From the IMG/VR virus record IMGVR_UViG_2698536610_000002: a DNA stretch of 57,929 nucleotides, one strand, 5' to 3'. Source of the stretch: a virus. Lineage: Duplodnaviria; Heunggongvirae; Uroviricota; Caudoviricetes. The translations under genes were made by a program, and so were the position numbers. Under the pieces are notes generated by a model that made no database searches, was not told the origin of the DNA, and was given only the letters and a program-made list of their open reading frames with translations. Positions 5,782-56,403 of this stretch are shown here, piece by piece (position 1 is the first letter of the stretch; each line of letters opens with the position of its first letter).

Positions 5782-6474
5782 TTATCCGTGTTTTCTATAT
5801 GTCTGCGGCATGCTTCCAATGACTTTACCGAAGATGAACACCCGGTTCATCTCGTCTTTCTCGATCGGGTCCCACGGTGAGTAGCTCTTGTTATCAGAGA
5901 TAACCAGCAGCTTATCCTTCATCATTTGCAGGCGCTTTACATGGGCTGTGTCGTCGTACAGAAACGCATAGATACCATCACCGTCGAAAGATTTAACAGT
6001 GATATCAACGAACAAAAGATCACCTGGTTCGATCGTTCCTGACATGCTGTCACCGCGTACGTTAATGATGCGGATATTTTCTGCCTTCCTGCCATCGAAC
6101 ATGTGACGAGCATCGTCAAACGAGTACTCAACCGAGCGTAGAACTTCTACAAACTCACGATTGATGACACCCGGCCCGGCACTGACTTCTATATCAAGAA
6201 CGTCAATCTTGAAGTATTTGGAATGGCTGACAGCAGGCTTCCCTGATTGTTGACCGTCATTTCTCATCGGGCCTATGCCTGATGAGAGCCACTCTGTTCG
6301 AACACCCAATGCATTAGCTATTTCAACAATTTTTGTTGAGCCGCGCGCGTTGCCGCTTGTCAGTCTCCAGATTGTGGGTTGAGCTACGCCAGACGCCTTT
6401 GCAAGAGCGCCTTGAGACATTCCAGATTGTTCCATCGCTAGGTTTAAGCGATCAGCAAGAGTTTCTTTTTTCAT
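5782..6474 (-). CDS. cI: CI-type repressor (N-terminal HTH, C-terminal S24 LexA-like peptidase domain)
   Basis: Start set at MKKETLADRL; HTH region SQGALAKASGVAQPTIWRL; C-terminal domain with GDSM Ser motif and VKRL Lys motif typical of autocleaving repressors. Confidence 0.85.
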   Translation of the reverse strand: MKKETLADRLNLAMEQSGMSQGALAKASGVAQPTIWRLTSGNARGSTKIVEIANALGVRTEWLSSGIGPMRNDGQQSGKPAVSHSKYFKIDVLDIEVSAGPGVINREFVEVLRSVEYSFDDARHMFDGRKAENIRIINVRGDSMSGTIEPGDLLFVDITVKSFDGDGIYAFLYDDTAHVKRLQMMKDKLLVISDNKSYSPWDPIEKDEMNRVFIFGKVIGSMPQTYRKHG

Positions 6475-6485
6475 AAGTTTTAATT

Positions 6486-6568
6486 TATACGCTTGCGTAT
6501 TGATGGTCAAAACACGTTTTGCTATTGATTGGGTTAATACGCATTGCTATTATCTATTCATTGCAATA
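6486..6568. promoter_or_regulatory. Candidate OR operators and divergent PRM/PR region
   Basis: Imperfect palindrome tatacgcttgcgtat (6486-6500), taatacgcattgctatta (6535-6552) and cattgcaata (6559-6568) between divergent cI and cro. Confidence 0.5.
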
Positions 6569-6584
6569 CCAATAGGAATTGATA

Positions 6585-6812
6585 ATGACAAATCAAACCA
6601 TTCAACTCGCAATCAGTATTACAGGTAGTCAAAAACGACTGGCAGATCTCTGCGGTGTAGCCCAACCCACGGTTTGGCGTTGGCTACACGGTGGCGGAAT
6701 TGATGCCCGCTATGTAATGAAAATTGTCTCAGCCACTGGTGGAAAGATTAAACCAGCAGATATTCGTCCCGACCTCGCACCATTGTTTAACGTGAGTAAT
6801 TCTTCCGCCTAA
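6585..6812 (+). CDS. cro: Cro-like HTH regulator (YdaS-like)
   Basis: ATG at 6585 with SD aggaa 6 nt upstream; HTH QKRLADLCGVAQPTVWRWL; divergent from cI. Confidence 0.75.
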   Translation: MTNQTIQLAISITGSQKRLADLCGVAQPTVWRWLHGGGIDARYVMKIVSATGGKIKPADIRPDLAPLFNVSNSSA

Positions 6813-6842
6813 TCTGCGGAGTTAACTGATAAGGCAATTACT

Positions 6843-7382
6843 ATGCAACCAATTACATACCAACAGACTAGCGGATTTACCCCGGCTGCGGTGATAAATC
6901 GTTCTCAAACAAAACAGGCGCCAGGCCACGAAAAAATCCGTGATGCCGTTCGCGCCTGGTCGGCTGCAGATAATCAGGATGTTGTTGCCGCACTCATTGT
7001 GAATGAGTATCGGGAGCAGGGCGGCGGCACCATCGATTTCCCTGATGATGTCAGCCGTGCACGCCAGAAGCTGTTCCGCTTCCTCGATAACAAATTCGAT
7101 TCTGAAAAATACCGAAATAACGTGCGTGAACTGACCCCGGCAATTCTGGCGGTACTACCGCTGGAATATCGCGGTTACCTGGTTGAGCAGGATAGCTTCA
7201 TGGCTAGGTTGGCTGAAATGGAAAAGGAACTCAGTGAGGCAAAACAGGCTGTCATTCTCAACGCACCACGCCACCAGAAACTGAAGGAAATTAGTGAAGG
7301 TATTGTGTCGATGTTTCGTGTGGACCCAGATCTGGCTGGTCCATTGATGGCGATGGTTACTACCATGCTGGGGGCGATATGA
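6843..7382 (+). CDS. CII-like regulator (CP76/YdaT family)
   Basis: 179 aa in the cII position; segment LTPAILAVLPLEYR resembles my recollection of YdaT/CII-like prophage regulators; assignment by position and weak memory. Confidence 0.45.
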   Translation: MQPITYQQTSGFTPAAVINRSQTKQAPGHEKIRDAVRAWSAADNQDVVAALIVNEYREQGGGTIDFPDDVSRARQKLFRFLDNKFDSEKYRNNVRELTPAILAVLPLEYRGYLVEQDSFMARLAEMEKELSEAKQAVILNAPRHQKLKEISEGIVSMFRVDPDLAGPLMAMVTTMLGAI

Positions 7383-9879: not shown

Positions 9880-10911
9880 ATGTCCTCGAATATTTTATCT
9901 GGTGAAAAAGTAATCAATAAAATTGCTGAAAAGTTGAGCGATTATAAATATCCTCCGGCTGAAGGTATGAACTCTGAACATGTCAGCAAATGGATTAAGC
10001 AATTTGCAGTGGAGGATAGACGATTTATCTTAGATGAAACGCTTTATCTACTTAATGCAGGTTACCTATCCGAAAGTCAATATCAACGAAAAATAAAAGC
10101 CATTGCAAGAAGTGAAAAGAACGCGAAATTCTTCAGATATGCAGGTTTTTTAGATATTCAAAAAAAAGGTTCTAGTCAGAAGGAATTGCTTAAATCTCTT
10201 TATGAAACAGTAGGGATCAAATTTAACATCGTTACTGAATCATCAACTCAAGATGAAGTAAATAAATTTGATACATTTGTATATATTGATGATGTGTCGT
10301 TTTCAGGAGAAAAGGCCATCAAATCGATAAGTAATTTTGTTTTAAAATTTAATTTAAGAGATATTAAATTCAATGTATATTTTTTTTCATCTCATACGTT
10401 ATCTGACTATAATATAAAAAGACGATTAGAATATATTTTTAAGGATAGAAACATTTTTGTACACGTGAAGAATGGTGGTATGCGTGAGGTTGAAAACCGA
10501 AAAAGTCGTTCTGCTCAATCAGGTGTTTTCTGGCCAAGGAAATATAGTGTAGATACTCCCGAGAAATTCGAGGAGTGTGAGCTTTACAAAGGCGTATTCA
10601 GAGATGGATATGCCTCTTCTGATAGTTTTAGAAATGAAGCCTCAAGGGATCGTTTCGAATCTATCCTTACTAAAGTCGGCTTTAATATCTTGCTGCACAG
10701 GAAAACCCCTAGTGAGGTGCTCAAACCTCTAGGTTTTTCTACTTTTGACGGTTTGGGTTTTGGGGGAACAACATTTACTTATCGAAATTGCCCGAATAAT
10801 GTGCCGCTGGCTTTTTGGTGGGGAGATTATGAACCAACAGGTGCTCCCGCATTGGACTGCTGGTATCCACTAATGAAGCGGAATGGGTATAATGAGTGGT
10901 ATGAGCTATAG
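9880..10911 (+). CDS. Uncharacterised 343-aa protein, upstream partner of a NADAR gene
   Basis: AT-rich ORF with SD aagga 7 nt upstream; internal FVYIDDVSFSGEKA weakly resembles a PRPP-binding (PRTase) loop; no confident family assignment. Confidence 0.8.
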   Translation: MSSNILSGEKVINKIAEKLSDYKYPPAEGMNSEHVSKWIKQFAVEDRRFILDETLYLLNAGYLSESQYQRKIKAIARSEKNAKFFRYAGFLDIQKKGSSQKELLKSLYETVGIKFNIVTESSTQDEVNKFDTFVYIDDVSFSGEKAIKSISNFVLKFNLRDIKFNVYFFSSHTLSDYNIKRRLEYIFKDRNIFVHVKNGGMREVENRKSRSAQSGVFWPRKYSVDTPEKFEECELYKGVFRDGYASSDSFRNEASRDRFESILTKVGFNILLHRKTPSEVLKPLGFSTFDGLGFGGTTFTYRNCPNNVPLAFWWGDYEPTGAPALDCWYPLMKRNGYNEWYEL

Positions 10912-11512
10912 ATTATATCCGCTACAGAACACAGTTTCCTTCAGGAAAACCACCGAAAAATGGGGGGGGCTTTCCAACATGGCTAAAGGATATCCATTGT
11001 TAATCAATGGGTTGCCTATTCAATCAAGTGAAATCCTTTACCAAGCATGCCGATATCCAGACTATCCGGATATACAAAAGGCCATCATTACTCAAGGAAA
11101 CCCCTATGAAGCCAAGCAGACCGCAAGATCGTTTGAATCCAAAACTCGCGCAGGATGGGATAAGAATCGAGTTTCGATTATGAAGTGGTGTGTATGCGTA
11201 AAATTATGCCAGAACTGGGATACGTTCTTTGCGCTGTTAGACAGTACAGGCGACCATTTCATCGTGGAACACTCAGAGAAGGACCAATTCTGGGGTGCCA
11301 GTAAAGACCCAGAAGGTAACTATTATGGTATGAACGTATTAGGGCGAATTCTCATGGACGTGAGAGGGGTTGCTAGGAAAAAGGGGGCTGATGGGTTTGC
11401 AACAATACCATCGCTATCTTTGGACAAATTTTTTCTCCTAGGCGAAAGAATTAAAGATGTAACATTTGTAGAGCCAACGCCTGGAGCAGGGCAAAGTTTA
11501 TCCTTGTTTTAG
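10883..11512 (+). CDS. NADAR-domain protein (YbiA-like N-glycosidase/ADP-ribose-processing superfamily)
   Basis: 209 aa; N-terminal GGLSNM-type signature (WGGLSNMAKGYPL) and overall YbiA/DUF1768-like layout; overlaps the upstream gene by 29 nt. Confidence 0.7.
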   Translation: MGIMSGMSYRLYPLQNTVSFRKTTEKWGGLSNMAKGYPLLINGLPIQSSEILYQACRYPDYPDIQKAIITQGNPYEAKQTARSFESKTRAGWDKNRVSIMKWCVCVKLCQNWDTFFALLDSTGDHFIVEHSEKDQFWGASKDPEGNYYGMNVLGRILMDVRGVARKKGADGFATIPSLSLDKFFLLGERIKDVTFVEPTPGAGQSLSLF

Positions 11513-13834: not shown

Positions 13835-14917
13835 TTAGAACTGGTAAACCATACCTACAGCAACGATATCATCGGTAGCAACGCCAGATGCTTTCGTGAA
13901 ATCGCTCTTATCAATCAGGTTGATTTTGTAATCAACAAAAGTGGACATATTTTTGTTGAAGTAATAGGTTGCACCTACATCAATATATTCAACCAGGTCC
14001 TGATCACCCCACGCACCCAAGTCTTTTCCTTTAGATTGCAGGTAAGCAACGGACGGACGCAGACCGAAGTCGAACTGATATTGTGCAACTACTTCGAAGT
14101 TTTGTGCTTTGTTGGCAATATGGTTATTACCAAAAACAGTCATGTTCTGGGTTTCAGAATAGGTGGTAGCCAGATAGATGTTGTTCGCATCATATTTCAG
14201 ACCAGCTGCCCATACTTCAGCATTTTGACCAGATGCATTCAGGCTGTTGTTACCGTAGATAACCTGATTATTAGTGCGGTCAGATTTAGCATAGGTTGCA
14301 CCTACACCGAATCCTTCATACTCATAAGTAGTGGAGAAACCGAAACCATCACCATTAGCTTCAGTTACGTCAGTGCGGTCATTTTTACCCTGATACTGAG
14401 CAGCAAAGTTCAGACCATCAACCAGACCAAAGAAGTCGTTGTTACGATAAGTTGCAACACCAGTGGTGCGACCAGTCATGAACACATCTGTTTGGGTCCA
14501 GGTATCGCCACCGAATTCTGGCAGAACGTCAGTCCACGCACCGATGTCATATGCTACACCGTAGTTACGGCCGTAATCGATTGAGCCGTAGTCCCCGAAT
14601 TTCAGGCCTGCAAATGCAAGACGGGTTTTGTCTTTGGAGGAGCCTTGAGATTCAGCGCGGTTGCCTTTGAATTCATATTCCCACTGACCGAAACCAGTCA
14701 GTTGATCGTTGATTTGGGTTTCACCTTTGAAGCCAAGACGGGCATAAGTAGTATCACCATCATCTGCATCATTAGAGGAGAAGTAGTGCTTGGCATTAAC
14801 TTTCCCATATAGATCCAGCTTGTTACTGTCTTTATTATAAATTTCAGCTGCCTGAGCAGACATCGCCATCAGTACTGATGCAGCTACAGCAGAAATTGCC
14901 ACTGTTAATTTTTTCAT
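13835..14917 (-). CDS. nmpC: Outer-membrane porin (NmpC/OmpD-like), intact
   Basis: Start at [23 protein letters not shown] signal peptide; C-terminal ...VAVGMVYQF ending in Phe typical of porins. Confidence 0.9.
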
Positions 14918-15504
14918 CGTGAGCCCTTTTTTTGAACTATTATTAAAAAATGATGTCACTGCGCGATAAATATTCATCTAATCAATGTGATTATTTCAAG
15001 ATGTAAGTTTTAGTTTCTCATTTAATTTGTGAAGTAGATCTCTATTTTTATCTGAACTTTTTCTATCGAAACCTATTTATGGCTCTTATTTGAACAAAAA
15101 TAAACCTATTAGCTAATTTATATTAATGGTTGTTATTTATGGAGGTTCTATAATTCGGCAGTTTAATTTAAATCAACTAAAAATAACGCCTGAAATTATT
15201 TATTGGTTATTTGTTGAGGTTTTCTTATGTATTTGTGGTGGTGTTTTGAACACTCGGTAGCATTCTCATAAATATCATTCAGTGGTTTACGTACGTAAAA
15301 AATTGGTTATGCTGTTAAGAGTGGTTACTTCGTCACACAGCTTAAACCCGCCGTCGAGCTGGTTTTTCCATTTTCTGAGTCTCGATATTAGCTGATAACT
15401 CAATACCTGAGTTATTCACTGACTCCGAGTCTGTTACGTTTCTGCTTTTTTGCGATACGTTGTATTCCCTCAATTTACACCCGCTTTGTCTGCGAGGTGG
15501 GGTT

Positions 15505-48286: not shown

Positions 48287-51200
48287 GTGAATATGGCAGT
48301 AAAGATTTCAGGTGTACTGAAAGACGGCACAGGAAAACCGGTACAGAACTGCACAATCCAGCTGAAAGCAAAACGTAACAGCACCACGGTGGTGGTGAAC
48401 ACGCTGGCCTCAGAAAATCCGGATGAAGCCGGGCGTTACAGCATGGACGTTGAGTACGGGCAGTACAGCGTTATTCTGTTGGTGGAGGGATTCCCGCCGT
48501 CACATGCCGGGACCATCACCGTGTATGAAGATTCCCGACCCGGTACGCTGAATGATTTTCTCGGTGCCATGACGGAGGATGATGCCCGTCCTGAGGCACT
48601 GCGCCGTTTTGAACTGATGGTGGAAGAGGTGGCGCGTAACGCGTCCGCGGTGGCACAGAACACGGCAGCCGCGAAGAAGTCAGCCAGCGATGCCAGCACA
48701 TCAGCCCGTGAGGCGGCAACCCATGCGACTGATGCTGCAGGCTCAGCACGCGCAGCCAGCACGTCAGCCGGACAGGCCGCGTCGTCGGCTCAGTCAGCAT
48801 CTTCCAGCGCAGGAACGGCATCAACAAAGGCCAGTGAAGCATCGAAAAGTGCTGCTGCTGCAGAGTCCTCAAAAAGCGCGGCAGCTACCAGTGCCGCTAC
48901 GGCGAAAACGTCAGAAACGAATGCGGCAGCGTCACAACAATCAGCAGCCACTTCTGCATCCGCCGCGACCACGAAGGCGTCAGAAGCAGCCACCTCAGCC
49001 CGGGATGCGGCGGCCTCAAAAGAGGCAGCGAAATCATCAGAAACGAACGCATCATCAAGCGCCAGTAGTGCCGCTTCCTCGGCAACGGCAGCAGGCAATT
49101 CCGCGAAGGCGGCAAAGACGTCCGAGACAAACGCCAGGTCTTCTGAAACGGCAGCGGGACAGAGCGCCTCGGCTGCGGCAGGCTCAAAAACAGCGGCTGC
49201 GTCGTCTGCCAGTGCAGCGTCAACAAGTGCCGGGCAGGCCTCAGCCAGTGCTAGCGCCGCCGGAAAATCGGCAGAAAGCGCCGCATCGTCCGCTTCAACA
49301 GCCACAACGAAGGCTGGCGAAGCCACTGAACAGGCCAGCGCAGCAGCGAGGTCAGCTTCCGCAGCGAAGACATCCGAAACGAACGCGAAAGCGTCGGAAA
49401 CCAGCGCAGAATCCTCAAAAACGGCTGCCGCATCGTCCGCCAGTTCGGCGGCGTCATCGGCCTCATCGGCGTCTGCTTCAAAAGATGAGGCGACCAGACA
49501 AGCGTCAGCAGCGAAGGGCAGCGCCACGACGGCATCCACGAAGGCAACAGAGGCTGCTGGCAGTGCGACGGCGGCATCTCAGAGCAAAACTACTGCTGAA
49601 TCCGCTGCGACCCGTGCGGAAGCTGCTGCTGATCGTGCTGAAGAGATTGCCGGTGCAGTTGCGATGGAAGACGCAAGCCTTACAACTAAAGGTGTTGTGA
49701 AACTTAGCAGTGCTGTTGATAGCACCAGTGAATCGCTGGCCGCAACGCCAAAAGCAGTTAAAGCAGCCAATGACAATGCGAATAGCAGGGTGCCATCTAA
49801 CCGAAAAGTTAACGGAAAAGCACTGACTGCGGATATAACATTAACGCCGAAAGATATTGGTACTTTAAATTCAGTAACGATGTCTTTCTCTGGCGGGGCT
49901 GGGTGGTTCAAACTGGCTACGGTTACCATGCCACAAGCGAGTTCCATCGTTTACATCGCATTGATTGGTGGCGCTGGTTACAACGTCGGTTCCCCACATC
50001 AGGCAGGCATTTCAGAACTGGTTCTACGAGCAGGCAATGGAAACCCCAAAGGAATTACCGGGGCTTTGTGGAAGCGTACAGCCGTCGGATTAACGAATTT
50101 CGCCTGGATCAACACATCCGGCGATACATATGATATTTACGTTGAGATTGGCAATTATGCGACGAGTGTAAATATCCATTGGGATTGTACTGCAAATGCG
50201 TCAGTTTCTGTTTATACCTCGCCAACATATTCAGCGAGTAAGCCTTCCAGCGTTACCTATGGTGTTGTTTATACGATGTATAGCTCACATCAGAAACCTA
50301 CACCATCAGATATTGGAGCACTGCCAACAACCGGAGGAACAGTTTCAGGTCCGTTGTCTGTTACAGGTGGATTAACTGGTTCATTGAATGGTAATGCAAG
50401 TACAGCCACGAAATTGCAGACGGCAAGATCTATCGGTGGAGTTGTTTTCGACGGTTCTGCAAATATTAACCTTCCAGGTGTAAACACTACGGGTAATCAG
50501 AACACCACTGGTAATGCTGCAACTGCTACAAAACTTCAGACTGCAAGAAAAATATCCGGTGTTCCATTTGATGGTTCTACTGATATCACTTTAACCGCCG
50601 CGCATGTGGCTGCTTTTGCCAGAAGGGCAACGGATACATATGCCGATGCGGATGGTGGCGTTCCCTGGAATGCCGAATCAGGCGCTTACAATGTCACCCG
50701 CTCTGGCGACACCTATATTCTGGTTAACTTCTATACCGGAGTCGGAAGTTGCCGGACCCTGCAGATGAAGGCGCATTACAGAAATGGAGGTCTGTTCTAC
50801 CGTTCCTCAAGAGATGGCTATGGTTTTGAGGAAGGCTGGGCAGAAGTTTATACCTCGAAAAATCTTCCACCAGAAAGCTACCCAGTTGGCGCACCAATCC
50901 CGTGGCCATCAGATACCGTTCCGTCTGGTTATGCCCTGATGCAGGGGCAGACTTTTGACAAATCTGCTTACCCGAAACTTGCAGCCGCTTATCCGTCAGG
51001 CGTGATCCCTGATATGCGTGGCTGGACGATTAAGGGCAAACCTGCCAGTGGTCGGGCCGTATTGTCTCAGGAACAGGACGGCATTAAATCGCATACCCAC
51101 AGCGCCAGCGCATCCAATACAGATTTGGGGACGAAAACCACATCGTCGTTTGATTACGGCACTAAATCCACGAATAACACCGGGGCACATACACACAGTG

Positions 51201-51520
51201 TTAGCGGTACGGCTGCTTCAGCCGGTGCACATACCCATTCGATGACATTTGTTTCAGGTGGTTCCAGTGGTGCTCCGGGAAGTGGATCACCTGATTATTC
51301 TAAATACAGTGTTAACACTTCTTCTGCAGGCGCTCATACGCACTCTGTATCGGGTACTGCTGCAAGCGCAGGTGCACATGCACATACTGTCGGTATTGGT
51401 GCTCATACGCACTCTGTTGCGATTGGCTCACATGGACACACTATCACCGTTAACGCTGCTGGTAACGCGGAAAACACCGTCAAAAACATCGCATTTAACT
51501 ACATTGTGAGGCTTGCATAA
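48287..51520 (+). CDS. stf: Side tail fibre Stf with expanded Ala/Ser-rich repeat region and His-rich C-terminal repeats
   Basis: 1077 aa; repeated AKTSETNA-type units; C-terminal GAHTHS/GSHGHT repeats typical of tail-fibre receptor-binding tips. Confidence 0.85.
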
Positions 51521-52104
51521 TGGCATTCAGAATGAGTGAACAACCACGGACCATAAAAATTTATAATCTGCTGGCCGGAACTAATGAATTTATTGGTGAA
51601 GGTGACGCATATATTCCGCCTCATACAGGTCTGCCTGCAAACAGTACCTATATTGCACCGCCAGATATTCCGGCTGGTTTCGTGGCTGTTTTCAACAGTG
51701 ATGAGGCATCGTGGCATCTCGTTGAAGATCATCGGGGTAAAACGGTTTATGACGTGGCTTCCGGCGACGCGTTATTTATTTCTGAACTCGGCTCATTACC
51801 GGAAAATGTCACTTGGTTATCCCCGGAAGGGGAGTTTCAGAAGTGGAACGGCACAGCCTGGGTGAAGGATACGGAAGCAGAAAAACTGTTCCGGATCCGG
51901 GAGGCGGAAGAAACAAAAAACAGCCTGATGCAGGTAGCCAGTGAGCATATTGCGCCGCTTCAGGATGCTGCAGATCTGGAAATCGCAACGGAGGAAGAAA
52001 CCTCGTTGCTTGAAGCCTGGAAGAAGTATCGGGTGTTGCTGAATCGTGTTGATACATCAACTGCACCTGATATTGAGTGGCCCGCAATCCCTGTTATGGA
52101 ATAA
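51520..52104 (+). CDS. tfa: Tail fibre assembly chaperone Tfa
   Basis: 194 aa [48 protein letters not shown]... matches lambda Tfa. Confidence 0.9.
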
Positions 52105-52437
52105 TAGTTTTGTGATATGCCGCAGAAACGTTATATGCAATAACGTGCTGCGGTTGGCTGATGTACTTTCGAGAGTGTATTGAATAATTTCCAACCGTCA
52201 TTAATTTTATTTATTTTTTGTATGAGAGGATTTGAACCTCCGAGCCTCGACACCTTATGACAACGCGATATTGCCTTGATGACCGCCATGTGCCAAAATA
52301 ACCAATTGATAAATAAGTTGATTTTAATTGGTTGGAAGCAAGTCAGGTCAAATTCAGCATTCCGCTCTCTGTATCGGATAGTTAAATTTTTCTATAACTG
52401 ATAGTAATATGTTAAAACTCACACAGATAAATTATCA

Positions 52438-54420
52438 TTGCTCAACAAGTATAATGGAGTTCCCGTGGATACAGCAGAACATGATGGCAAGTTTGCTTGG
52501 GCTAGTTTTTATGAGGCTTTTGCCAACGCGTTACTGACTTGGCGAAATCGTAGAGATGAATTAGTCAAAGGTATTCATCTAATTGCCTCGGGTGTGGAAG
52601 GAATGTCCCATCTGCAGGACAAATCTATTATGGGAGAGATCTTTCCCTTAAAAGACATTTGTCCGTTTACTACTATGGGCTTGTTCAATCGTAACTTGAC
52701 CGACAGCAATCGCAAAATTATTGCTGCCAAGCTAGCGAATTTGTTGGGCGTGAACGAACCGATTCCTGACTCCTTTGCCGGAATCCCTCTGTTGAATAAC
52801 CAAAAATCTTGGTTCTTTGGTTATGAAAAGTCACGCGACCCTAATGACATTGAATGCTTGTGGGAAATGTTCTCACAGGCAATGACCTTTGCGGATAACC
52901 AGAATACTAACTCTGCAGACTTCACTGCCGCATATGACATCGCTTCTACAGTAATGAATGTCGGTTGGAATCTCACCATGGGGTTGTACTGGACCCGTCC
53001 TTGGTTCTACCCCACTTTAGATAGCCAGTCGCAGTATTACATTCAGACAGTGTTAAACATTAAGATCATTAAAAACGGGGCAAAAGGTCGCTGTAGTGGA
53101 CAAAGTTACCTGAGTCTTATGCGGGCGCTGAACGAGGTCTTTACCCAACCAAACTATCCGGTTCATTCTTTCCCAGAACTTTCCTTATCAGCGTGGAATA
53201 CAGATCTTAGCCAGTCTAAAGATGAGGTGGCAAATAGAACGTGGAAAGCCTCTTTACTGAATAAAATTAAGGCGTTATGCCTGAAAAAAAATGGCCCTTA
53301 TTTCACTGCTTCGGAGTTGGAAGAAAACTACTTGGACGTTTTCAAGGTAGAGCATCCTGAGAGCAAAACTGTTACAAGCTCAATCTACTTTTATCTACAG
53401 AAACTATGCAATGATGATGAGTTAAAGTCCCTCGAGTCCGGAAATTATGAATACCTGAATTTTGAGAAAAACGAATCCCAGACGATAACTGAGGAAACTG
53501 TCGAAGAGAGTGCGCTGTCGCCAAAACTCACCCACGTTCCTTATGACATCAGTCATCTGGTGCAGGATGGCTGTTTCTTGGAAGAGGCTAAGATCCAACT
53601 CACACTTCAGCGCCTGATCGACAAGAAAAACCTGATATTACAAGGACCACCCGGAACTGGAAAAACTTGGTTAGCGCGACGTCTGGCGTACTGCTTGATG
53701 GGAGAAAAAGCACCTGAGCGTATTAGCGCGGTGCAATTTCACCCGAACCTCTCTTACGAAGACTTTATTCGCGGCTGGCGTCCAGGTAAAGAAGGGCAAT
53801 TGACGCTAATTGATGGACCTTTTGTAAATGCAATCAAAACTGCAGTCAATAATCCTACCTCGAAATATGTGGTGATAATTGAAGAGATTAATCGTGGCAA
53901 TCCGGCGCAAATCTTCGGTGAAACACTCACGTTGATGGAAGCAGATAAACGCACGCCGACTGAGGCATTATCTCTTTCCTATCCTAAAAATGCTGATGAA
54001 AAAATATACATTCCTGAGAATCTATATATCATCGGTACGATGAATATTGCAGACCGCTCACTCGCACTACTTGACCTAGCGCTGCGCCGTCGTTTCGCGT
54101 TTATCGATCTAAAGCCAGCTTTTAATGACGCGTGGAGAAACTGGGTAAATTATAATTACGCAATTGATTTTGACATGTTAGCATTCATCAAATCTCGACT
54201 GACGGTATTAAACGATATGCTGGCAAAAGATGTTACCTTAGGACCACAGTTTTGTATCGGTCACAGCTATGTCACCCCAGCTATCGGCCAAAAAATCAAC
54301 GATGCCCAGGCTTGGTATGAACAAGTCGTTGATACAGAGATCTGCCCTTTGCTCGCCGAATATTGGTTCGATGCTCCAAATAAAGTCGATGAAGCCAGAA
54401 AAGTGTTATTAGCAAAATGA
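52438..54420 (+). CDS. McrB-like AAA+ GTPase with a long (~400 aa) N-terminal domain; start codon uncertain (TTG 52438 or GTG 52465)
   Basis: C-terminal half aligns with E. coli McrB: LILQGPPGTGKTWLARRLAY, VVIIEEINRGNPAQIFGE, YIIGTMNIADRSLALLDLALRRRFAFIDL. Confidence 0.8.
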   Translation: MLNKYNGVPVDTAEHDGKFAWASFYEAFANALLTWRNRRDELVKGIHLIASGVEGMSHLQDKSIMGEIFPLKDICPFTTMGLFNRNLTDSNRKIIAAKLANLLGVNEPIPDSFAGIPLLNNQKSWFFGYEKSRDPNDIECLWEMFSQAMTFADNQNTNSADFTAAYDIASTVMNVGWNLTMGLYWTRPWFYPTLDSQSQYYIQTVLNIKIIKNGAKGRCSGQSYLSLMRALNEVFTQPNYPVHSFPELSLSAWNTDLSQSKDEVANRTWKASLLNKIKALCLKKNGPYFTASELEENYLDVFKVEHPESKTVTSSIYFYLQKLCNDDELKSLESGNYEYLNFEKNESQTITEETVEESALSPKLTHVPYDISHLVQDGCFLEEAKIQLTLQRLIDKKNLILQGPPGTGKTWLARRLAYCLMGEKAPERISAVQFHPNLSYEDFIRGWRPGKEGQLTLIDGPFVNAIKTAVNNPTSKYVVIIEEINRGNPAQIFGETLTLMEADKRTPTEALSLSYPKNADEKIYIPENLYIIGTMNIADRSLALLDLALRRRFAFIDLKPAFNDAWRNWVNYNYAIDFDMLAFIKSRLTVLNDMLAKDVTLGPQFCIGHSYVTPAIGQKINDAQAWYEQVVDTEICPLLAEYWFDAPNKVDEARKVLLAK

Positions 54421-55538
54421 CGACAATAACCGGGAGTGAGCAACATACAGCATCACGTATTCCCATGCGAAATATCTGGATGCTGATGCTGTACGCTTCA
54501 GATCTGTTTCGCCAGTTAGGGCGCAATCAGATCGCAGTAGAAGATAACCCAGCAGAAATCCCCGACCTGGTGGCGACAATCCTCCTTCATGAGATTACGC
54601 TGCGCCGACGTCGCAATTTAAATATGGGATACCAAACTTGTCATGCGGCCCTGAACCGGGTGAGAGGGCGCATTGACATACTGTATACTGCCAGTCATCA
54701 ACTGCTGGAACGGGGACAGGTTGCCTGCCATTTTCAAGACATAACCCTCAACACCCCCCGAAATCGCTATGTTCGCTGTGCGTTAGAACGTCTGGCCTCA
54801 ATCATAGTGAAACCGTCTTTGGCGGCAGATTGCCATTTTATGGCAATATCACTTCGCCGTGAGGGGATAAATGGAGGATATCCTGCCCCCCACGAATTAC
54901 CCTCAGTGTGGCGTTTTGGACGCCATGATGCCGCAGATAAACCGATGGTCGATGCCGCACGATTAGCTTTTGAACTGCTGATGCCGACCGAAGATCAAGG
55001 CCAATATCTTTTACCTGCGCCCTCAAATAACCTTTACTGGATGAGAAGACTATTTGAAAAAGGTATCGCTGGCTTATATCGTGTACACCTTGACAAAACA
55101 ACTTGGCAGGTCTCTGCAGGGAAAGAGCTGAAATGGGCGTTGAGCGATCAAAGTGCAGGTAGTGCAGAGATTTTCCCGACAATGAAGTCAGACATTATTC
55201 TGGAACACAAGACTGCCCAGCGGCGTATTATTATCGATACCAAATTTAATTCGATTCTGACAAAGGGTTGGCATCGGGAGCAATCACTACGTAATGGCTA
55301 TATTTATCAGCTATATACCTACCTTAGAACACAGGAGAACAAGACGGATCCGCTTTCGCTCAATGCCGCTGGTCTTCTACTTCATCCAGCTGTTGGCTAT
55401 ATGCTTAATGAGTATGTTGTCACTCAGGGACATAAGATCCATTTTGCTACAGTAGATATGACGGTAGATGCTAAAGCAATTAAAAAACAATTGCTGGCAA
55501 TAGCCCATGATTGTGCAGGAGTCGCGGTTGATGACTAA
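54417..55538 (+). CDS. McrC-like nuclease subunit
   Basis: 373 aa; ATGA start/stop overlap with the McrB-like gene; PD-(D/E)xK-like IIIDTKFN and QLYTYL motifs in the C-terminal half. Confidence 0.75.
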   Translation: MTTITGSEQHTASRIPMRNIWMLMLYASDLFRQLGRNQIAVEDNPAEIPDLVATILLHEITLRRRRNLNMGYQTCHAALNRVRGRIDILYTASHQLLERGQVACHFQDITLNTPRNRYVRCALERLASIIVKPSLAADCHFMAISLRREGINGGYPAPHELPSVWRFGRHDAADKPMVDAARLAFELLMPTEDQGQYLLPAPSNNLYWMRRLFEKGIAGLYRVHLDKTTWQVSAGKELKWALSDQSAGSAEIFPTMKSDIILEHKTAQRRIIIDTKFNSILTKGWHREQSLRNGYIYQLYTYLRTQENKTDPLSLNAAGLLLHPAVGYMLNEYVVTQGHKIHFATVDMTVDAKAIKKQLLAIAHDCAGVAVDD

Positions 55539-56238
55539 CCATCCTATAGGGCACTGGCTGTAATATAATCAATAGTTTCAATTAAGTAGCTGTTATCCGT
55601 GCTTAGTCATCATATGACGCACCACGGTCTAATTTTCCTGCTCATACATTGATATATCCTTGTCGTGCCCGGAAAGTCGCAGTCCACTATGAGGTATACC
55701 GATTGCCAGCACCAAAAGCTTCTTTGTGATTATTATATCGGGGAATGCCTATTTTTTTAGTGACAATATCAGATAGCAATTAATAAGCGGTGCCGGTAAT
55801 GGATGTTATGTTTAATGTATAGACACAGCCATCATAAACTAAACGTCTGTTGTTCGCTCATAACCGACATTTATCTCAGTTATGGAGGATAATTATGTAT
55901 GCAGATAATGGGGCAGACAGTCGTGGAGTAAACAAGGTTTTGCACTGCTTGGCGGCATCGTTATCTTATTTTTAATTATGTGCCTCTTAACATAAGTTGG
56001 GACAAAACAGAGACACATAAGGTCTCACAAAGGTCTGCAAGGCCTCACATGTATTGAGATGTTAATAAAATGTAGACTTGTAATTTGGATATAAATGGTA
56101 GAGAAAACCTTTCCCCAAAATAAAAACGAACGTCAATGAAATCAAACGGTTGAATAAAGTTAATTTTGGCTAATAAAAAGACAATAAAATAATTTTTATC
56201 ATTAAATATCAATGACTTGAATTCATGGTTTTTATATA

Positions 56239-56403
56239 CTGCTGCGCCATATGGGCTGGACTGAAGCCGCAGACCTGATTGTTAAAGGTATGGAAGGCGC
56301 AATCAATGCGAAGACCGTAACCTATGACTTCGAGCGTCTGATGGAAGGCGCTAAACTGCTGAAATGTTCAGAATTTGGTGATGCGATCATCAAGAACATG
56401 TAA
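56239..56403 (+). pseudogene. icd: 3' fragment of isocitrate dehydrogenase gene (icd'), displaced copy marking a phage attachment site
   Basis: Translates [54 protein letters not shown], the Icd C-terminus; in-frame stop 6 codons upstream shows it is only a fragment. Confidence 0.8.

Follow-up and report, generated by a model that had tools for sequence, protein, structure and literature searches.

McrBC enzymes are studied as model motor-nucleases and used to map DNA modification; joined to such a motor, a new recognition module could give a new specificity. In EcoKMcrBC of Escherichia coli K-12 the module is a DUF3578/SRA-like N-terminal domain that binds 5-methylcytosine (5mC). Helbrecht et al. 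2024 (Front Microbiol 15:1286822; PMC11037411) listed a further class, 'NTD-wH-NTPase + McrC-like', in which a winged helix (wH) is preceded by an N-terminal domain (NTD) "of unknown function", and left it uncharacterized, giving neither activity nor specificity nor an analysis of the NTD. Here we describe a two-gene cassette with this domain order close to the right end of a 57,929-nucleotide stretch of Caudoviricetes DNA (IMG/VR record IMGVR_UViG_2698536610_000002; the whole stretch is henceforth the window). As judged from its sequence, the pair is a real and probably functional Type IV-like McrBC variant. By every criterion testable on sequence it is a member of McrBC, and it is not categorically new; its recognition module is uncharacterized. 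The overall picture that we on balance favor is that of a self-contained restriction cassette of the McrBC family, two genes long, which moves horizontally, travels as cargo of a prophage and is targeted by its N-terminal module.

Gene pair, motor and nuclease

The cassette comprises two co-directional open reading frames (ORFs) on the plus strand, 52438..54420 (660 aa if read from a TTG) and 54417..55538 (373 aa), which overlap through an ATGA. An initial annotation, made from the letters of the window, had read these as a McrBC-like pair: a protein of 660 aa with the McrB-type GTPase motifs GPPGTGKT, IIEEINR and RRRF behind an N-terminal region unlike that of K-12 McrB, followed by a McrC-like gene overlapping by ATGA. 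We found the motifs, the overlap, the McrC relationship and the dissimilar N-terminal region as described, and that interpretation proves essentially right. The 660-codon frame likewise exists, but its TTG start is not favored.

The C-terminal part of the first protein aligned in BLASTP with residues 178-457 of EcoK McrB at 47% identity over 282 aa, and matched the EcoK McrB chain in PDB (6hz4_A) with an e-value of 6e-76. The McrB profile of NCBIfam (NF008457) recovered the segment at aa 378-654 (numbering of the 660-aa form; all other residue numbers below refer to the 651-aa form) with an e-value of 6e-78, only profile positions 176-452 being covered. Walker A and B motifs, an NxxD signature in the sensor I place, arginine fingers and an alignment with EcoK McrB that includes the N-linker place the protein in the McrB family (Table 1). 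It scores below the threshold for an EcoK McrB equivalog (262.6 bits vs a cutoff of 637); DUF3578 (MrcB_N) gave no Pfam match at an e-value of 1 or better, and residues 1 to ~370 showed no similarity to the EcoK McrB N-domain in Pfam or BLASTP searches.

The second protein passes the cutoffs of both Pfam PF10117 (75.6 bits vs 23.9) and the McrC equivalog NF007277 (355.3 bits vs 338), lies directly downstream of the mcrB-like gene, and aligns over its full length with EcoK McrC at 24% identity. Its residues D259, D274 and K276 fall opposite the catalytic D244, D257 and K259 of EcoK McrC, so that it keeps an intact PD-(D/E)xK site. The McrB and McrC matches are much too strong to be chance. Public databases name the exact proteins 'AAA family ATPase' or 'McrB protein' and 'McrC'; PADLOC returned only generic REase_II/AAA matches for the McrB-like protein and no match for the McrC protein.

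RefSeq begins the McrB-like gene at GTG 52465, giving 651 aa. When the DNA upstream of the gene is aligned across six genera, a GTG or TTG at 52465 proves conserved together with a GGAG 6 nt upstream, the latter being invariant, and the position of TTG 52438 is occupied by AAA in Citrobacter and Erwinia. These observations make GTG 52465, rather than TTG 52438, the most likely start. Annotations of the McrC start differ: for the E. coli allele met most often (99.2% identical; L085, L086, locus 6109-7182) RefSeq calls a 357-aa protein from the internal Met17 and not the 373-aa form that overlaps through ATGA. The 108-bp leader in front of the pair has a mean column identity of 92% over the six genera, compared to ~87% for the whole cassette against the five closest genera. 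It holds an invariant TAATAT (52405-52410), the invariant GGAG Shine-Dalgarno sequence (52456-52459) and, in most of the six genera, a small inverted repeat, CCGAT...ATCGG; a consensus promoter scan called no site within it. Its conservation suggests that it is likely to serve as promoter and operator.

Table 1. Features of the cassette and its right flank (positions are those of the window; residues follow the 651-aa form)
Feature	Position	Strand	Description and basis
Upstream leader/putative promoter region	52357..52464	+	Cross-genus DNA homology to the cassette starts at 52357
McrB-like gene	52465..54420	+	651 aa, RefSeq WP_000379041.1 'AAA family ATPase'; NTD, winged helix, linker, McrB GTPase
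NTD, alpha-rich, uncharacterized, aa 1-245	52465..53199	+	AlphaFold2; precomputed Pfam label PF28527
DpnI-type winged helix, aa 252-332	53218..53460	+	DpnI_C family; AlphaFold2 and profile comparison
wH recognition helix, aa ~303-316	53371-53412	+	DpnI methyl-pocket positions are S305, S306, Y308, F309; Q312 kept
Acidic linker, aa 333-359	53461..53541	+	pLDDT <50 at aa 337-354 (full model); pI 4.5
McrB-type AAA+ GTPase including N-linker, aa 360-651	53542..54417	+	Identity to EcoK McrB; AAA_5 (PF07728) e-value 8e-27
Walker A GPPGTGKT, aa 394-401	53644-53667	+	Motif search
Walker B IIEEINR, aa 471-477	53875-53895	+	Motif search
NxxD signature MNIADR, aa 526-531	54040-54057	+	Motif search
RRRF motif	aa 541-544	+	Motif search
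McrC-type PD-(D/E)xK nuclease subunit	54417..55538	+	373 aa, WP_000207932.1; start overlaps mcrB-like stop (ATGA)
McrC catalytic codons	D259 55191-55193; D274 55236-55238; K276 55242-55244	+	Alignment to EcoK McrC
AT-rich spacer	55571..56236	.	Low GC; cross-genus homology ends ~55570-55599; K-12 homology starts at 56237
Right prophage junction (attR side) and icd 3' duplication	56237..56403	+	icd fragment 56251-56403; ORF reads as icd C-terminus; RefSeq annotation
iraM	after 56403	-	Next gene past the icd fragment

The N-terminal region

AlphaFold2 models built from 58-70 homologues (mean pLDDT 87.9 for the full length and 91.1 for the N-terminal part) divide the McrB-like protein into an NTD, a winged helix, a linker and the GTPase (Table 1). 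The ~400-aa N-terminal region of the initial annotation is present, but its treatment as a single domain is not borne out, the models predicting two domains and a linker instead. The families named there for a domain search, MrcB_N/DUF3578, SRA, YTH and EVE, were all sought in profile searches and none matched. Its supposed distinctness from characterized readers stands for the NTD and not for the ~80 residues that belong with the C-terminal winged helix of DpnI, though these are without the residues that contact N6-methyladenine (6mA) and GATC.

The NTD is predicted to adopt an alpha-rich fold and not a PUA-like barrel: neither a profile match to SRA, YTH, EVE or ASCH nor a PUA-like beta-barrel was found in the N-terminal region. 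Sequence, profile and fold searches recovered no similarity between the NTD and known base-flipping readers and no relative among solved structures, and Foldseek searches of the BFVD collection with the N-terminal model gave only wH-type matches. The HhH-GPD glycosylases MutY and OGG1 surfaced in Foldseek with e-values of 2.6-2.9, a probability of 0.08 and a TM-score of ~0.2; these matches are not significant and were set aside. Precomputed annotations in a public collection label the domain PF28527, with PF28529 and PF28530 appearing there as well, and we found no mention of the three accessions in the literature.

A phmmer search of 1.84 billion representative proteins recovered NTD homologues in at least 1,954 clusters (50% identity) at an e-value of 1e-3 or better, 291 of them at 1e-30 or better. 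AAA_5 lies downstream of the NTD in all nine long members scanned, and 73 of 80 genomic loci, drawn from many phyla, preserve the order NTD-GTPase-McrC; McrC went undetected in the other seven, where the contig or the stored locus mostly ends shortly after the gene. In many homologues, such as P0104, the NTD is the sole domain besides the GTPase. Others add an N-terminal extension of ~160 aa, an Mrr_N winged helix or tetratricopeptide repeats (TPRs), one homologue of 1,368 aa having a long TPR array in front, and some carry two or three NTD copies in tandem (P0121, P0122, P0123 and others). The ~160-aa extension, found in many homologues that lack the wH, was suspected of being PUA-like and gave no sequence match in Pfam or PDB. 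On plasmids of Bacteroidales the NTD is fused to an FRG domain, as in a 494-aa protein of the Parabacteroides distasonis plasmid NZ_OY725774.1 that includes the first ~180 NTD residues (L087:3998-5482; hhalign probability 99.6%, Pfam FRG e-value 2e-20). Since this fusion has no AAA+ domain, the NTD is not exclusive to McrB. Plasmid MP1 of Deinococcus radiodurans R1 likewise encodes an 869-aa 'McrB family protein' with an NTD-like segment (L088:4277-8214), followed by a gene of the McrC family; upstream of the McrB family gene this locus has a DNA methyltransferase and an insertion sequence. Literature and database searches turned up no characterized member of the NTD-type McrB branch.

By both profile and fold the winged helix belongs to the DpnI_C family (PF17726), the window protein by itself scoring 11.3 bits against this model, below the gathering cutoff of 23. 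Among NTD-bearing proteins the insert is confined to an enterobacterial clade and a few deltaproteobacterial relatives. In DpnI the recognition-helix residues E228, K229, R231, Q232 and Q235 form a double methyl pocket and read GATC (PMC3424567). Profile alignment places S305, S306, Y308, F309 and Q312 at these positions, so that one of the five contacts of a DpnI-like reader of methylated GATC (G6mATC) is kept. The altered helix, TSSIYFYLQKL, is also conserved in the orthologues from Buttiauxella, Serratia, Citrobacter and Erwinia.

E. coli is Dam+, and members of the Enterobacterales generally carry Dam. In E. coli a nuclease guided by a reader of G6mATC would be toxic to its own cell; together with the loss of the contact residues this argues that the specificity of the wH differs from that of DpnI. 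The comparison agrees with the view of Helbrecht et al. on most wH fusions, ~10% of which keep the GATC/6mA motif, the others perhaps reading different marks (PMC11037411).

Genomic setting, mobility and selection

At its left end the window encodes a lambda-type integrase, after which come exo/RecT, repressor, O and P genes; the element is a complete lambdoid prophage inserted at icd. Homology to K-12 sets in at 56237, exactly where the cryptic prophage e14 ends on the right, and runs onward at 95.7% identity through icdC', iraM and ycgX. In K-12 the gene just inside the right junction of e14, immediately before icdC/iraM, is mcrA; the cassette sits between tfa and the icd' fragment, and the equation of this slot with the position of mcrA, already drawn in the initial annotation, agrees with the point at which K-12 homology sets in. 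The cassette immediately precedes the icd' fragment in all four other E. coli genomes examined, in two of which a pin-like recombinase pseudogene comes before it, as in e14.

The cassette proper extends from 52357 to ~55570 (3.2 kb; GC content 39-48%). Copies with ~87% DNA identity lie between unrelated flanks, which include genes of a CP4-57-like island, in Buttiauxella, Serratia, Citrobacter, Erwinia and Lonsdalea. The presence of the same cassette in different surroundings in five other genera points to a discrete mobile two-gene unit that travels with its own conserved 108-bp upstream region. Neither the cassette nor its variable flanks hold a methyltransferase, and a phage genome collection gave no match to the cassette by DNA or protein. 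The spacer that follows (~670 bp, 34-43% GC, without an annotated gene) is common neither to K-12 e14 nor to the cassette in other genera, and just one ORF of at least 50 aa was found in it, of 55 aa on the minus strand.

Among 5,426 complete E. coli genomes 305 carry the cassette (~5.6%, about 1 in 18), always at 99% identity or more and, in 289, with a query coverage of at least 80%. In ML35 (L002:3366-7775) an IS3 insertion splits the McrB-like gene, and two further strains (hits H54 and H55) retain just 10-15% fragments. Against the orthologues of the five other genera, dN/dS calculated by the Nei-Gojobori method was ~0.12 overall and 0.10-0.23 for each domain and for McrC, which indicates that all parts of the cassette are under purifying selection.

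Elsewhere in the prophage, a PRTase-CE (PF24390) gene and then a NADAR-domain (PF08719) gene lie just downstream of O/P (9880-11512, +) and may form a second conflict or defense module. A general porin gene of the Lc/NmpC type (13835-14977, -; Porin_1 e-value 4e-153) is a moron. The 1,077-aa tail-fibre protein (48287-51520, +) contains an Ala/Ser/Thr-rich low-complexity stretch of ~400 residues and His-rich HxH repeats near its C-terminus, and a full-length match to Rfam IS009 (51863-52061, +; 221 bits vs a gathering threshold of 117) falls inside the tail-fibre assembly gene, at its 3' end. A string at ~52220-52290 that looked tRNA-like by eye was dropped: ARAGORN and Rfam called no tRNA there, and megablast found it in only ~300 genomes, roughly the number of cassette carriers.

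Proposed working, alternatives and known systems

Reasoning from homology to EcoKMcrBC (PMC12707154; LlaI preprint), we propose that the McrB AAA+ domain of the 651-aa subunit would drive its assembly into GTP-bound hexameric rings, and that McrC would insert into the ring, stimulate GTP hydrolysis and supply the PD-(D/E)xK site. As in EcoKMcrBC, cleavage would follow GTP-driven translocation away from the recognition sites. The architecture suggests that the NTD and wH together replace the DUF3578 domain of EcoK as the targeting module, with the TSSIYFYLQKL helix of the wH predicted to read the major groove. As there is no methyltransferase partner and the hosts are Dam+ and Dcm+, the target should be a mark that the host does not make, i.e. 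a base modification of foreign phages or plasmids other than G6mATC or C5mCWGG. Relatives without the wH have only the NTD, which must then be able to target alone; in the enterobacterial clade the wH probably makes the specificity narrower or adds to it.

The NxxD signature, which is that of the canonical DNA-targeting branch (PMC10542128), speaks for this proposal, as does the portability of the NTD, whose FRG fusion and tandem copies resemble the behavior of a sensor module. It is also favored by the intact motifs of motor and nuclease, the gene order retained across phyla, purifying selection on every domain, the many intact E. coli copies, the changing flanks in other genera, the mcrA slot, the altered DpnI-type helix and the lack of a methyltransferase in the cassette. 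Several points weigh against it. Across phyla the NTD is 50-60% identical, about as conserved as the GTPase; such motor-like conservation is unusual for a specificity domain in an arms race, and the NTD could have a part in structure, regulation or ligand sensing instead. The NTD and the wH are mildly acidic (pI 5.4-5.6), which is atypical of strong DNA binders. Further, the target modification cannot be named from sequence, we found no experiments on this system or on any NTD-type McrB, and the one attempted purification of an NTD-wH-NTPase/McrC complex failed (PMC11037411).

A more specific form of the proposal is possible, and we offer it tentatively: the NTD might be a previously unrecognized fold that senses DNA modification or invader DNA, and the wH, with its aromatic Y-F-Y helix, a re-specified one, the two together recognizing a bulky phage hypermodification that EcoK McrA, McrBC and Mrr miss. 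Candidate targets would then include Mom-type adenine adducts, 7-deazaguanines, and glucosylated or other hypermodified pyrimidines, and the NTD would define one of the largest uncharacterized branches of McrBC. Interest in the cassette would rise should the NTD turn out to represent a modification reader of a new class.

We think it rather unlikely that the system is independent of modification, with the NTD, the wH or both sensing an unmodified sequence or DNA structure typical of phage or plasmid DNA in replication, a phage protein or a nucleotide ligand and licensing McrC in the manner of an abortive-infection or innate sensor. The conservation and acidity of the NTD noted above would suit such a role, as would its transfer to a non-McrB effector in the FRG fusion and its lack of similarity to base-flipping readers. 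However, those canonical McrBC systems of two genes that have been characterized and bear a fused N-terminal domain recognize modified DNA bases (PMC12707154; LlaI preprint), recognition of unmodified host-like sequence would be self-toxic where no methyltransferase is present, and the family of the wH is one of major-groove readers of double-stranded DNA.

We consider it improbable that the cassette is a G6mATC-dependent McrBC that uses its wH as DpnI does and is tolerated in Dam+ hosts through tight silencing, for instance by H-NS acting on AT-rich prophage DNA. The membership of the wH in DpnI_C, the Dam dependence of characterized wH fusions, the suggestion that tight expression control is a way round the conflict (both PMC11037411) and the GC content of the cassette (39-48%) would all fit. 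Set against this, Q312 is the only one of the five methyl-pocket and GATC residues to remain, the altered helix is conserved in five Enterobacterales genera with a dN/dS of 0.14-0.23, ~5.6% of complete E. coli genomes retain the cassette intact, and the GATC/6mA motif is found in only ~10% of wH fusions (PMC11037411).

It is very improbable that we are dealing with a prophage remnant that is in decay and no longer functional: the disrupted copies in ML35 and two further strains and the degradation of many host prophages at icd could be so read, but 289 genomes have full-length ORFs, all catalytic motifs are intact, the cross-genus dN/dS is ~0.12, and the upstream region and Shine-Dalgarno sequence are conserved. 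RNA targeting is scarcely credible; McrBC relatives predicted to act in this way, the CoCoNuT subclass, do exist (PMC10542128), but the signature here is NxxD (MNIADR) and not NxD, no coiled-coil, CSD or HEPN domains were matched, only two genes are present, the PD-(D/E)xK site of McrC is intact, and the GTPase is 47% identical to that of EcoK McrB.

If the preferred reading of a modification-directed prophage cassette is right, definition of its target would show what a common prophage defense of E. coli excludes, with relevance to host range in phage therapy and to the cloning of modified DNA, and the cassette could yield a reagent for a modification beyond the reach of the Type IV enzymes now available.

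Comparison with known systems places the cassette closest to EcoKMcrBC (PDB 6hz4, 6ut6) in its motor and nuclease: both have two genes with overlapping stop and start, the GTPases share the Walker A and B, NxxD and arginine-finger elements, and the McrC proteins align throughout with the D...D-x-K triad conserved. The two differ in that the 5mC-binding N-domain of EcoK is replaced here by the 245-aa NTD and the winged helix, in the low identity of McrC and sub-equivalog score of the whole McrB-like protein, and in location, EcoKMcrBC residing in the hsd-mrr immigration control region and the cassette in a prophage at icd. McrA of e14 offers the closest parallel in setting. Both come last in the cargo of an icd-integrated element, next to the icd' duplication at its right end, the cassette is in several strains preceded by a pin-like recombinase remnant as in e14, and both are restriction functions without a methyltransferase; this adds evidence that the attR-proximal slot of e14-like elements at icd is an exchange point for such genes. 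The proteins have no sequence relationship, McrA being a single-chain HNH enzyme with an NEco 5mC reader and the cassette a two-subunit McrBC type predicted to depend on GTP.

A conserved motor and McrC with a swapped N-terminal module are also seen in the YTH-like McrB homologue of T. gammatolerans, the EVE/PUA-like one of S. marinus and the B3 one of LlaJI (PMC12707154). In contrast to these, the NTD is predicted to be alpha-rich and was related by the searches to neither PUA-like nor B3 folds, and LlaJI is accompanied by methyltransferases whereas the cassette is not. From R.DpnI (PDB 4esj/4kyw; PF17726) the wH differs in having S/S/Y/F in place of E228/K229/R231/Q232, and in being fused to a GTPase motor where in DpnI it is fused to a PD-(D/E)xK domain. 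Searches of the literature with the RefSeq accessions, for prophage or icd-associated McrBC, and for FRG with McrB returned nothing on this system. Its domain order, taken from the AlphaFold2 models and the searches, is that of the NTD-wH-NTPase/McrC class, the match resting on the description given by Helbrecht et al. To that class we add a member placed in an E. coli prophage, a wH that lacks the GATC/6mA motif, and an NTD that defines a far wider family of wH-less McrB proteins.

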